DNA from: Candidatus Thorarchaeota archaeon
GTDB taxonomy: Archaea; Asgardarchaeota; Thorarchaeia; Thorarchaeales; Thorarchaeaceae
Assembly: GCA_004524445.1 (NCBI GenBank)
Contig: SDNP01000032.1
Span: 1-32,849, forward strand
Reading direction: 5' to 3'
Length of the DNA stretch: 32,849 bases
Part shown: positions 2,323 to 6,010 of the stretch, piece after piece
Position numbering within the stretch: the first letter of the stretch is position 1
Layout: every line of letters starts with the position of its first letter
Position numbers and translations under genes: made by a program
The notes under the pieces: model-generated
The model's input: only the letters and a program-made list of their open reading frames with translations
Told to the model about the DNA's origin: nothing
Databases searched by the model: none

Positions 2323-2754
2323 TTAGAGGTAGTAGAAGACGTAGAAAGCTACGCCGCCCCCGAATGAATAGAGCCACAGAGCCAAGGCTGCATACATCAA
2401 TCGTCTTGAACCACACAGTAACGGGTCATTATTCCTCATCTTGAACAGGAATCTACCTGCAAATAACAAACCTAGCCCAACAGTCACACTTCCGACGATG
2501 CTATGAACAATCGTAATAGATTGCCCAATGTCTCCGGTATATGGGATGAGCGCATCGATATTCACGATGAGTGATGGCGCCATAATAGTCAATACTGTGA
2601 CCAAGTTGATTATGGTTGCAACGCCCATTATGATACCATGTACTCGGTATGGCTTTTTCTTTATCCAGCCTAGAACTAACATAATGACCAATGCAGCTTG
2701 GATAATCAAATTGATGTCATAGATCAATGCCGCTTGTGGTGAGAATAATCCCAT
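2323..2754 (-). CDS. DUF420-like four-helix membrane protein
   Basis: 143 aa with four hydrophobic segments and His residues in TM2/TM3 (VHGIIM, VHSIVG) plus LWLYSFGGG, as in DUF420-like proteins. Confidence 0.65.
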   Translation of the reverse strand: MGLFSPQAALIYDINLIIQAALVIMLVLGWIKKKPYRVHGIIMGVATIINLVTVLTIMAPSLIVNIDALIPYTGDIGQSITIVHSIVGSVTVGLGLLFAGRFLFKMRNNDPLLCGSRRLMYAALALWLYSFGGGVAFYVFYYL

Positions 2755-2839
2755 TCTAATCAGCTTTAATAGATGCCTATGGTTTCCCTTAAATCCTTCT
2801 CACAACTGATACTGGAGAAGAAATAGTGAAAGGAGATAT

Positions 2840-2906
2840 CCAGCGCCCCGGGCAGGGGTGTCCAACTCGGCTCACAACTTTACGCCGAGTCTTCATCCGC
2901 CGCTGG
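2840..2906 (-). promoter_or_regulatory. Eukaryote-type SECIS element at the 3' end of vhuU
   Basis: Minus strand reads CCAGCGGCGG-AUGAA-GACUCGGC-GUAAAGUUGUGA-GCCGAGUU-GGAC-ACCC-CUGCC-CGGGG-CGCUGG. This gives an AUGA...GA kink-turn core, an 8-bp upper helix, an apical AAA, and lower helices GGCGG/CUGCC and CCAGCG/CGCUGG. It lies about 82 nt downstream of an in-frame UGA. Confidence 0.82.
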
Positions 2907-3045
2907 TCACAATCTCCTTCCTGGCTATCTCGCGACCCTCATCATCCACGATGGTTAGATGAGCGCCGCAGGATAGTCAGCAGTCGTAGCAGCGAACCAC
3001 CATTTCCAGGAGGTTCAGCAGTCCTTCGGGTATGTCGTCTGTCAT
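2893..3045 (-). CDS. vhuU: Selenocysteine-containing [NiFeSe]-hydrogenase small peptide subunit VhuU (50 aa, Sec at codon 23, TGA at 2977-2979); absent from ORF track
   Basis: Manual translation: MTDDIPEGLLNLLEMVVRCYDC-U-LSCGAH-LTIVDDEGREIARKEIVTSGG*. It supplies the C-terminal Ni-binding motif (RxYDPCxxCxxH) that vhuA lacks, and the TGA falls exactly on the Cys/Sec ligand position. Confidence 0.92.
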
Positions 3046-3060
3046 TTTTTTGTTCACTTC

Positions 3061-4374
3061 TCATATCATGGGGTCCGGTAAGTCCAGACTCTCGTGTTCC
3101 TTATTTTCGAAAACTTGCTTGGCTGTCTTTAGGAGGCTTTTCTCAAGCCCCGCGATGTTATTGTTTGTGGCAACTACCATATTCACCTTTGTGATAATGC
3201 CATTGTCATCAGTCCAATAGTGGTGGATGAGTGTTCCTCTCGGTGCCTCCACACAACCGACACCATTGCCTTTTCTGGGTTCTACATCCGTCAGCTTGAC
3301 ATCTGTACTAACGATATCAGGGTCATTAAGGAGACCTTCCATCTCTTCTACAGCTTGAACCATCTCAATGACTCGTGCCCAATGGTACGCAAAGGTCGCG
3401 TGTATCGGGCGTCCTAAGGCGTCACGCATCTCTTCAAGGGCTTCTTGTGCAATGGGTGTAGCCATTTTATCCGCCACATTGATTCTTGCTAAGCTGTTTG
3501 CTCTCCAAACGCCCTCTGGATATCCCTTCTGCTTATAGTACACATGAGTTGCATAGGAATGGTCAGAAACGTATTCTCCGTAGTATTTTCGGTAATGCTT
3601 TGGATTGAAGTCCTCTACTATCTTCCCATCGGGGTCCATCACTCTTAGTTTGCCATCATAAATTTCCAAGTTGCCTTTGTCATGCAGTCCAAGGTAATAT
3701 GTAGGAACCACTGCGAGTTTGGTTATGGGGTCCCAGTAATCCTTCACGACTTTCTTGGCTAAATCAACAGTATCAAGGGTCTGTTGTTTCGTCTTCTCAA
3801 TCCGTTTCAGGAATTCATCTCGCTTTTCCTCTGAAAATGGATTCAGCATTCCTCCTGGTGTTGCAGTCACGGGATGGATTGCTTTCCCGCCAACAGCGGC
3901 ACACAGTTCCTGTCCGAACTTCATTACTTCAAGTGCCATCTTGCCTACATCTGGAAGGCTCTTGATTATATGGACAACATTTCGCTTTTCAGGCTCAGCA
4001 AACGGTCCCGCGAGAAAATCAGGTGCAGCAAGCGCAAAGAAATGCAAGGCATGACTACTGAATTGTTTTGCATTTATGAGTAGTCTTCGCAGTTTGATTG
4101 CAGCTGGTGGGGGCGTTACTTTCCATGCCGCCTCAACAGCCTTCACTGCTGCGAGGTGATGGGGTTCGGGACATATCCCGCAGATTCTTGGTGCTATACG
4201 TGGAGCCTCCTCAGCAAACCGGCCCTCTAAGAACTTCTCAAAGAAACGAGTACTGCTCACATTGAATTGAGCATCCTTGACTTTCCCATCCTTCCCCAAA
4301 ACAACAGTAATTTCACCATGTCCTTCCAAGCGAGTCACTGGTTCAATTCTGATTGTCTTTTCGTCTTTCGTCAT
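3061..4374 (-). CDS. vhuA: F420-non-reducing (group 3c) hydrogenase large subunit, lacking the C-terminal CxxC motif (split type)
   Basis: EPVTRLEGHG, RFFEKFLEGR, PRICGICPEPH (L1 motif), SHALHFFALAAPD and VEAPRGTLIHHY are all present. It ends ...LPDPMI-TGA with no DPCxxC motif. Confidence 0.93.
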   Translation of the reverse strand: MTKDEKTIRIEPVTRLEGHGEITVVLGKDGKVKDAQFNVSSTRFFEKFLEGRFAEEAPRIAPRICGICPEPHHLAAVKAVEAAWKVTPPPAAIKLRRLLINAKQFSSHALHFFALAAPDFLAGPFAEPEKRNVVHIIKSLPDVGKMALEVMKFGQELCAAVGGKAIHPVTATPGGMLNPFSEEKRDEFLKRIEKTKQQTLDTVDLAKKVVKDYWDPITKLAVVPTYYLGLHDKGNLEIYDGKLRVMDPDGKIVEDFNPKHYRKYYGEYVSDHSYATHVYYKQKGYPEGVWRANSLARINVADKMATPIAQEALEEMRDALGRPIHATFAYHWARVIEMVQAVEEMEGLLNDPDIVSTDVKLTDVEPRKGNGVGCVEAPRGTLIHHYWTDDNGIITKVNMVVATNNNIAGLEKSLLKTAKQVFENKEHESLDLPDPMI

Positions 4375-5291
4375 TTCTCTTCCTCTCTTTCTTTTCCCTT
4401 AATCTTCGAAAGGTACGAATCTGCATAATCTGTGAAATAGAATGAACCGATGGGATCTGGGAAGGCTGCCTTCAGCTCCTCCGGCTCCATCTCTGCAATG
4501 GCTCCCAACGCCGAGATTATTTTTGCACCGTGGTCCTTCACAGATGGAGGTGGACCGAAGCATCCTTTGCATGGTGTATTGACCGTTGGACACTGTGCTC
4601 CACACATTCCAATGGTTGCAAATCCTAGACAGAGATATCCTTGGTCCAGTAAACATTTGTCTGGGTCGATGTGACCCTCATGTGCACGATGAAACTTGGT
4701 GATGTGTTTGTCCTTCTTTTCCTTTGGACATTCATCACATACTGTCTTGGTGGGCAGCTCAAATGGTTGCCCCTTGATGAGAGCTGTTAATGCCTCAGCG
4801 GTGTTGTCACTCGTTGGAGGACAGCCGGGAAGCCGTACTTCAAAGGAAACGATGGATGGATTTGGTACAATGTGCTCAACAAATCCGGGCATGTTCTCGG
4901 TAGGAATTCTACCATCCTCGACGGTGTCTGCCTCGAGGAATTTTCGTCTTAGAAGCTCATCTAACGCCCATTGATTCCCAAGACCCTGTACTCCGCCGTA
5001 GACTGAGCAGGAGCCCCATGCTACCAAGACCTTGCTCTTTTTCCGCATGATCTTTAGTAGATGCTCGTCTTCCTTGGTTCTGCAGCTTCCTTCTACCATA
5101 CCAATGTGAATGGAACCATCCGGCATGTCTTCAAGGTCTTTCAACTTGAAGTCCACCACTGCTGGCCAATACACAATCTCTAGTTCAGGTAAGACGTCCA
5201 ATAAGCGAAGATGCAGGTCTACTAGTGCCTGGTCGCATCCCCAGCATGAAGTCAGTTGTGCAAGTGCTATTCTCTTGGTCATTTTAGTCAT
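4371..5291 (-). CDS. vhuG: F420-non-reducing hydrogenase small (FeS) subunit; start at 5291 or 5282
   Basis: SCWGC, VEGS, AWGSCSVYGG, LPGCPP, VCDECP, CLLDQGYLCLG...CGAQCP...PCKGCFGP. Its stop overlaps the vhuA start (ATGA). Confidence 0.92.
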   Translation of the reverse strand: MTKMTKRIALAQLTSCWGCDQALVDLHLRLLDVLPELEIVYWPAVVDFKLKDLEDMPDGSIHIGMVEGSCRTKEDEHLLKIMRKKSKVLVAWGSCSVYGGVQGLGNQWALDELLRRKFLEADTVEDGRIPTENMPGFVEHIVPNPSIVSFEVRLPGCPPTSDNTAEALTALIKGQPFELPTKTVCDECPKEKKDKHITKFHRAHEGHIDPDKCLLDQGYLCLGFATIGMCGAQCPTVNTPCKGCFGPPPSVKDHGAKIISALGAIAEMEPEELKAAFPDPIGSFYFTDYADSYLSKIKGKEREEEK

Positions 5292-5748
5292 CCTTCATTG
5301 CTGGATTGGGTCCTAGCTTTTTGATTCTCTCTACCATTGCCGTCACGCCTTGGGTAAATACATCGCCTTCAGCCGCACTTGCCCACTGTAGATGGACACG
5401 TCTTGGGTCTATACCAGCTTCCTTCAGCATGCTCTGGAGTAAAACGAATCTCCCTCTCATCTTCAGGTTGCCGCTTGTATAGTGACAGTCGCCAGGATGA
5501 CATCCACTGATGAGCACACCGTCTGCCCCCTGATTCAGCGCATCAAGAATGAAAACAGGGTCGATTCGCCCAGTACAATTGATTCTAATAATCCGTGCAT
5601 TTGGGGGCATTTGCATCCGGCTCGTTCCAGCAAGATCTGCTCCCGCATAGCTGCACCAATTACAGCAAAACGCCAAGATTCGGGGCTCAAAGCCTGCTTG
5701 CCGCTCCTTTTCCTTTTTTGTGGCTGTCTTCTGACTCGCTGATGTCAC
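5284..5748 (-). CDS. mvhD: MvhD/VhuD/FlpD-family [2Fe-2S] hydrogenase subunit (all-Cys form); probable GTG start at 5748
   Basis: FCCNWCSYAGADLAG, CTGRIDP, GADGVLISGCHPGDCHY and WASAAEG. A GGAGGT SD-like sequence lies about 10 nt upstream of the GTG at 5748. Confidence 0.93.
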   Translation of the reverse strand: MTSASQKTATKKEKERQAGFEPRILAFCCNWCSYAGADLAGTSRMQMPPNARIIRINCTGRIDPVFILDALNQGADGVLISGCHPGDCHYTSGNLKMRGRFVLLQSMLKEAGIDPRRVHLQWASAAEGDVFTQGVTAMVERIKKLGPNPAMKDD

Positions 5749-6010
5749 GCTGGAAATGACCTCCTGCGGCCTCAACTGCTCGGAATGATTATTGATTATT
5801 AAGATTCTGTTTAGTCGCACTTTTCTTTGGGCAGAAGCAATCAAAATTTTCTATAGAACTATGGTTTTCAAACACATTAAGATATGAGCTCTCGCGATGA
5901 ATTCTATCCGTCTGTACTAATATTTCATTCCTTGAATTTAGTAACAGTTTTTATGTCCCACTCCATCATCTATATGAGTTGTTGAGTCACAGTTGAAATG
6001 GTGATATGAT

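Follow-up and report, generated by a model that had tools for sequence, protein, structure and literature searches.

A probable selenocysteine insertion element at the vhuU stop codon of a Candidatus Thorarchaeota genome and its predicted three-way-junction fold

The window analysed here is a stretch of 32,849 nucleotides from Candidatus Thorarchaeota archaeon (assembly GCA_004524445.1, contig SDNP01000032.1, positions 1 to 32,849). All genes within its first 8 kb lie on the minus strand, and among them a vhuD-vhuG-vhuA operon was recognized by Pfam annotation, with vhuU starting 15 nt after vhuA (Table 1). The vhuU frame begins with an ATG at position 3045 and, according to its translation, opens with M-T-D-D, carries one in-frame UGA at the position of a selenocysteine (Sec) codon in the motif RCYDC-U-LSCGAH, and continues after the histidine of this motif with a tail of 21 residues that ends in T-S-G-G. 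In VhuD of the same operon the relevant positions are occupied by Cys, and its frame contains no in-frame UGA. The nearest public relatives of VhuA are from metagenome-assembled genomes (MAGs) of Candidatus Thorarchaeota with 83-84% identity; VhuA-like proteins with 40-44% identity over query residues 1-420 also occur in bacterial MAGs (Anaerolineae, Chloroflexota and others; L038-L051). In the nickel-site motif of VhuU a Cys replaces the usual Pro before Sec, and this Cys is kept in 30 of 30 class-level orthologues. The tail that follows the nickel-site His is cleaved during the maturation of [NiFe] hydrogenases, and the same is expected for VhuU; its codons would therefore be free to serve RNA structure.

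Table 1. Genes and predicted RNA features at the vhuU locus (coordinates of the window; RNA letters are given in the 5' to 3' direction of the minus strand).
Feature	Coordinates	Strand	Description and basis
vhuD	5844..5284	-	Pfam FlpD
vhuG	5291..4371	-	Pfam
vhuA	4374..3061	-	Pfam; without C-terminal nickel site
vhuU CDS	2893..3045	-	50 codons plus stop; translation
Nickel-site motif of VhuU	2959-2994	-	R-C-Y-D-C-U-L-S-C-G-A-H
vhuU Sec codon UGA	2979-2977	-	translation
vhuU stop codon UGA	2895-2893	-	inside AUGA 2896-2893
Probable vhuU SECIS, whole element	2921..2828	-	predicted three-way junction
P1 closing helix, 5' strand	2901..2921	-	GGAAGGAGAU (2921-2912) and CCAGCG (2906-2901), internal loop UGUGA between them
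Linker from P1 to core	2897..2900	-	GCGG; column counts
Core, 5' half	2893..2896	-	AUGA, its UGA being the vhuU stop; sequence
P2 upper stem	2864..2891	-	GACUCGGC (2891-2884) with GCCGAGUU (2871-2864), 8 bp
P2 apical loop	2883-2872	-	GUAAAGUUGUGA, 12 nt, starts with GUAAA
Core, 3' half	2860..2863	-	G-GA-C; GA (2862-2861) faces the GA of AUGA
P3 side hairpin	2846..2858	-	CCCC (2858-2855), loop UGCCC (2854-2850), GGGG (2849-2846)
P1 closing helix, 3' strand	2828..2845	-	CGCUGG (2845-2840) and AUCUCCUUUC (2837-2828)

A preliminary description of positions 2840 to 2906 had proposed a selenocysteine insertion sequence (SECIS) of eukaryotic type whose AUGA core contains the stop codon of vhuU, and its motifs, letters and coordinates were all located in the sequence at the places given. 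The lower helix reaches past the borders drawn there, since GGAAGGAGAU pairs with AUCUCCUUUC, and the closing helix P1 thus comprises about 16 bp overall (2921-2901 with 2845-2828). The 5' strand of P1 is entirely coding and corresponds to the last 9-10 vhuU codons, while its 3' strand is followed by a U-rich tract. The two G before AUGA, which never vary in the class set and hardly vary across the phylum, overlap the Gly codon GGA. Between core and upper stem A2892 stands opposite G2863 as a non-standard pair, and within the apical loop at most a marginal 2-bp pairing was obtained by folding. The side hairpin P3 begins 2 nt after the GA-C and is part of the minimum free energy (MFE) folds obtained for this locus and for many orthologues. 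The element is thus modelled as a three-way junction in which the closing helix P1 meets the side hairpin P3 and the upper stem P2, whose base carries the core. The AUGA and GA halves of the core would form a kink-turn-type pair of sheared G-A pairs, as inferred from the base sequence.

Folding of the full element (2923-2826, 98 nt) gave -42.6 kcal/mol with a z-score of -3.94, and none of 200 shuffled sequences folded as well; the 67-nt stretch of the preliminary description (67-86 nt folded alone) was no better than shuffles (z -0.71). Matches to vhuU were detected in 69 of the 87 class genomes searched and in 213 of 400 phylum genomes, with one in-frame TGA in every match among the matches listed. 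In an alignment of 31 class-level sequences prepared with MAFFT and evaluated for the three-helix structure, 93.7% of the cells were paired, compared with 23-43% when the partners were slid against each other, and 13 of 21 pairs changed on both sides. In the phylum alignment (26 sequences from other families), 95.2% of the cells were paired and two-sided changes occurred in 19 of 20 pairs; because the sequences were fitted to the model, these values favour the three-helix structure in advance. Two-sided changes were found in 3/7 P1a pairs within the class and 7/7 across the phylum, and in 8/9 and 9/9 P2 pairs, respectively. P3 was 98.5% paired in the class with two co-varying pairs, and 97.1% paired across the phylum, where three of its four pairs co-vary. 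The long lower helix was independently predicted in most of 58 orthologues. The core itself is nearly fixed: AUGA is present in 31/31 class-level sequences, and across the phylum UGA is kept in 26/26 and the preceding A in 23/26. In the columns of the 3' half of the core, the A was found in 57/57 sequences, preceded by G in 52 and by A in 5, and followed by C in 56/57. The vhuU element is more than a chance structure.

The loop of P3 follows the pattern Y-G-C-N-N phylum-wide, with G in 57/57 and C in 53/57 sequences, and the stem below it co-varies freely. In Thorarchaeia the GC in this loop can pair with a GC in the linker; this pairing was rejected as a general explanation, as no Loki-type counterpart was seen by eye.

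How the lower part of the element folds is the point at which the preliminary description and the three-way model diverge. In the former, a linear eukaryote-like SECIS without side hairpin was drawn, in which a helix I composed of CCAGCG/CGCUGG and GGCGG/CUGCC leads through an internal loop to the core and on to helix II. Its outer helix CCAGCG/CGCUGG stood: it covers the T-S-G codons and co-varies, including a Ser/Gly codon change that is accompanied by a compensating change in the 3' strand. The inner helix GGCGG/CUGCC, which has one G in common with CCAGCG, found no support from covariation, and its bases belong to the co-varying P3 (2858-2846). Within the class, the four linker pairs GCGG/CYGC are 99.2% pairable, the lower-stem consensus [U/C]GG_C[C/U][A/G] published for frhA describes the same pairing (Huang 2024, PMC11227280), and RNAalifold also returned a G-rich lower stem, in a different register. 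The class value is weak evidence because the 5' bases are fixed by Gly codons, and no pair of the inner helix showed a two-sided change in the class or the phylum alignment. Across the phylum GGCGG/CUGCC is only 63.2% paired, with its two outer pairs mostly broken, whereas the competing P3 is 97-98% paired, co-varies and appears in the MFE folds of the locus and of numerous orthologues. The linear two-helix fold is therefore regarded as improbable, although GCGG/CYGC pairing may still arise as an alternative conformer within the class. The three-way junction is used as the structural model in the following.

The claim that the UGA of the AUGA core is the stop codon of vhuU follows from the sequence, and the proposed comparison of orthologous 3' ends for covariation and for conservation of the overlap bore it out, as the stem co-varies and the overlap is kept. 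At 30/30 class-level loci the frame ends in ..G-G-UGA 28 codons after Sec, within GGAUGA followed by a variable stem and GAC. In other families of the phylum, most of the loci read also end in UGA 28 codons past Sec, within NUGA; the base before the stop is usually A outside the class and sometimes U or C. The last vhuU codon is mostly GGA, and G-G-A is required by the RNA ahead of UGA. The RNA seems to have had as large a part as the protein in shaping the residues of the tail. Orthologues with UAA or UAG at this position and no compensating SECIS had been named as an observation that would speak against the overlap. Four vhuU orthologues with a UAA stop were found, all in other Asgard families (L061, L064, L066 and L067). 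In three of them (L064, L066 and L067) the AUGA element is displaced 20-25 nt further downstream. In L061 the hairpin is homologous but reads AUGC where AUGA would be expected, possibly a variant without the standard core. In a subclade of the same class as the vhuU described here (L082, L083 and L084) a 4-codon acidic insert in the VhuU tail extends the distance from Sec to stop to 32 codons, and the overlap of stop and AUGA is kept.

The overlap of stop and core is already known, and this gene is already catalogued: the AUGA of Loki VhuU.1 doubles as stop codon (Mariotti 2016, PMC4989117), and in Lokiarchaeia UGA stops often overlap the AUGA motif (Huang 2024, PMC11227280), whose supplementary file 74 lists both VhuU frames of the present genome letter for letter as GCA_004524445_U and GCA_004524445_U_2. 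The vhuU locus provides a clean and well-conserved Thorarchaeota example of a published principle. Asgard SECIS elements have been proposed as a link between the archaeal and the eukaryotic ways of reading UGA as selenocysteine.

The assembly searched for the Sec machinery and for other UGA-containing genes comprises 2.79 Mb in 64 contigs and is 90% complete. It was found to contain a tRNA-Sec with anticodon UCA, a SepSecS gene, a SelB-like factor above the NCBIfam cut-off and a selD gene with one in-frame TGA, and the organism therefore has the Sec trait. The genes for the SelB-like factor, SepSecS and tRNA-Sec (UCA) are clustered within 3.5 kb on contig C49 (35951-39446). A second vhuU copy (L002; contig C16:72646-72867, minus strand) has 91% DNA identity to the first and its own SECIS, with compensated changes in the upper stem. 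In this copy ATG is replaced by ATA, and the start is probably an in-frame TTG four codons upstream. Two vhuU copies are also present in a genome of the same genus (G076).

The selD gene ends with E-F-P-UGA, and its stop UGA (contig C19:24341-24343, corresponding to L098:1142-1144) again lies inside AUGA. The element that follows extends about 70 nt after the stop. Its stem of 7 bp carries an A-rich loop and is succeeded by GA and by a side hairpin whose loop reads AGCAA. Drawing a closing helix around these parts by hand is possible; the unconstrained MFE fold shows the upper stem and the side hairpin but lacks this closing helix. The Sec codon of selD lies about 990 nt upstream of its element. 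The preliminary description had held that the cleavable tail of VhuU provides the spacing of about 82 nt between Sec codon and SECIS. This does not hold as a requirement: with an element of the same kind lying about 990 nt from its Sec codon in the same genome, the 82-84 nt in vhuU are not demanded by the machinery, and only a minimum distance is arguable.

When the genome of 2.8 Mb was scanned with a descriptor of the three-way junction, the top three hits were the ends of selD and of the two vhuU copies; it is the location of these hits and not their count that serves as evidence, as shuffled or reversed genomes yielded 1-3 sites at similar scores. A relaxed version of the descriptor returned mostly chance matches. 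Covariance models built from the vhuU elements of the class (R1) and of the phylum (R2) recovered both vhuU copies and nothing else in the genome, so that selD was missed; such models are too gene-specific for SECIS searches in general.

Taken together, these observations make it very probable that the element is the vhuU SECIS of a Thorarchaeota-type Asgard archaeon, that it is of the eukaryote-like kind described in the literature (lokiSECIS or eSECIS-like type I), that the UGA of its AUGA core is the stop codon, and that it folds as a three-way junction. Compared with the type I model of Huang 2024 (PMC11227280), the core GA..[G/A]A is present (GA 2894-2893 and GA 2862-2861) and recurs in 57/57 aligned relatives. 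The upper stem of 8 bp without mismatch falls within the 7-15 bp with at most two mismatches of that model, the 12-nt loop within its 8-20 nt without ministem, and the gene that carries the element at its 3' end has an in-frame UGA, the Sec machinery being encoded in the same genome. The loop start G[U/G]AAA reported there for Thorarchaeia frhA is matched by GUAAA. The lokiSECIS arrangement of AUGA before and GA after the stem (AA in Loki VhuU) is likewise found, if A2892 and G2863 are counted as a ninth, non-standard pair. The element departs slightly from the strict Loki form, which has 9 bp and an 11-nt loop compared with 8 bp plus A-G and a 12-nt loop here, and several relatives have 9 bp and an 11-nt loop ending in G. 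In lokiSECIS the first five loop bases are A-rich and the last is G, whereas GUAAAGUUGUGA has three A among the first five and the G in second position from the end. Shared with these published Asgard elements are the short stem, the A-rich loop of about 11-12 nt, the location at the very end of vhuU and the use of the core UGA as stop. The published Asgard models consulted comprise core, stem and loop, or a plain lower stem, to which the vhuU element adds the side hairpin and the coding closing helix.

The eukaryotic type I SECIS (RF00031) resembles the element in its quartet-type AUGA..GA core, unpaired A residues in the loop, a lower helix and action at a distance from the 3' end. It differs in that the vhuU stem is shorter (8-9 bp), as the preliminary description had already remarked, and in that the vhuU element overlaps coding sequence and stop and bears a hairpin on the 3' strand beside the core. 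Rfam searches gave no match to any SECIS family, RF00031 included, at the gathering score, nor at E <=10 for positions 2700-3100; only noise-level miRNA and sR30 matches were returned. The SECIS of Methanococcales and Methanopyrus (eaSECIS, GAA_A type) shares with the element the gene vhuU, the position at the mRNA 3' end and the archaeal SelB, but the GAA_A bulge and the upper stem of three G-C pairs are absent here. A GAA_A descriptor scan of 2930-2700 gave no hit within the element and a single loose match from 2802 (GGAU/AUCU) without the G-C triple. The earlier assignment to the eukaryote-like rather than the GAA_A architecture is thereby upheld, core and stem fitting the published Asgard models. 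Bacterial SECIS elements also overlap coding sequence and are melted by the ribosome in every round; they lie directly 3' of the Sec codon and lack a kink-turn-type core, while the vhuU element is situated 28 codons downstream and spans the stop.

The geometry of the element suggests how one UGA could be recoded and the other obeyed. While the Sec UGA occupies the A site, the element would still be intact and folded, starting 55 nt downstream and outside the ribosome, and could deliver Sec-tRNA via the archaeal SelB. The ribosome would then translate 27 further codons and would have to melt the closing helix P1 on the way. By the time it reached the stop, the 5' arm of P2 would be located 2-9 nt downstream, within the mRNA channel, so that the signal would be gone and the release factor would win. 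We infer from this geometry that proximity and unwinding of the SECIS would block recoding of the true stop, as the preliminary description had supposed; the argument that proximity protects the stop was already made for Lokiarchaeota (Mariotti 2016, PMC4989117).

Alternatively, the second UGA might sometimes be read as Sec or read through, the overlap being tolerated as the tail is cleaved. The next in-frame stop is only 7 codons on, so that the tail would grow by 6 codons up to the in-frame UGA at 2874-2872, and the removal of the tail expected for [NiFe] hydrogenases would fit such leniency. The same overlap in selD, for which no tail cleavage is known, argues against this, as does the position of the stop 2 nt from P2, which should leave the element unfolded while the stop is decoded. 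A minimum distance was also argued by Mariotti 2016 (PMC4989117). Readthrough of the stop is thus considered quite unlikely. Least credible of all is a hairpin without any recoding function, whether it stabilizes or terminates the transcript at its 3' end or serves as an L7Ae kink-turn site, for instance in a box C/D-like RNA. The Rfam model of box C/D sR30 matches 2900-2846 weakly (10.2 bits, threshold 38, E 4.6), and this match and the U-rich tract behind the closing helix point that way, but no D box (CUGA) is present, a search for an intrinsic-terminator pattern found none, the same architecture recurs at the stops of both vhuU copies and selD, all with in-frame UGA, a fourth UGA-containing ORF (described below) is followed by a related AUGA element, and the element lies behind vhuU even where the stop is UAA.

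In its three-way fold the SECIS resembles the k-junction, in which the non-bulged strand of a kink turn bears a third helix (Wang 2014, PMC4005666; Li 2023, PMC10573300). At the level of secondary structure and conservation, its topology is reproduced by the tandem G-A pairs, by a candidate 3-nt loop G-A-U on the 5' strand and by P3 on the opposite, non-bulged strand. The first pair of the C helix could consist of two nearly invariant bases, the G located two positions ahead of AUGA and the C that follows GA; at the second pair, Loki-type sequences have A-U, and most Thorarchaeia have C-A. The known k-junctions occur in TPP riboswitches and DUF-3268 RNA and are not recoding signals, and L7Ae does not fold them (PMC10573300). 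Within the genome, a small hairpin occupies the place of P3 in the vhuU elements, in the selD element and in the fourth candidate. It is put forward tentatively, at somewhat less than an even chance, that the functional unit of the Asgard SECIS is a k-junction-like three-way junction with a kink turn, a coding closing helix and a Y-G-C side hairpin, instead of core, stem and loop. If so, P3 could contact an Asgard-specific partner, either SelB or another protein. No SBP2 was found in Lokiarchaeota (Mariotti 2016, PMC4989117) and none is known in Asgard archaea.

Mariotti 2016, Huang 2024 and a 2026 review do not mention a side hairpin or three-way junction in their main texts, although the supplements of the first two may draw it, and a full-text literature search combining SECIS, "three-way junction" and archaea returned nothing relevant. 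Adding the closing helix and the side hairpin to the published search models would sharpen SECIS detection, and structure probing and binding assays could be aimed directly at the three-way shape. Besides this conserved shape, the residual interest of the analysis lies in a candidate gene for a small selenoprotein.

This gene is a small unlisted ORF on contig C52 (53056-53334, plus strand; L097:257-535) that was picked up when the genome was scanned with a plain AUGA-stem-loop-GA pattern. It encodes an N-terminal membrane helix and contains an in-frame UGA within the conserved motif P-D-N-R-T-U-x-x-Y-E-Y-I-D; its stop codon is UAG. About 30 nt past the stop (from about L097:566) an element composed of AUGA, a stem with a GUAAAGC loop and GA follows, with a small hairpin behind it. 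No Pfam family was found for the ORF, and it resembles none of the seven families of Asgard selenoproteins that Huang 2024 (PMC11227280) names. Matches were obtained in 6-7 of 400 phylum genomes, all of Thorarchaeia type, one of them weak and without the TGA, and in G075 the reading frame of the match is ambiguous. In four relatives (G076, G073, G074 and G017) the TGA, the motif downstream and a co-varying stem are all kept, and the ORF is listed as a candidate new small selenoprotein.
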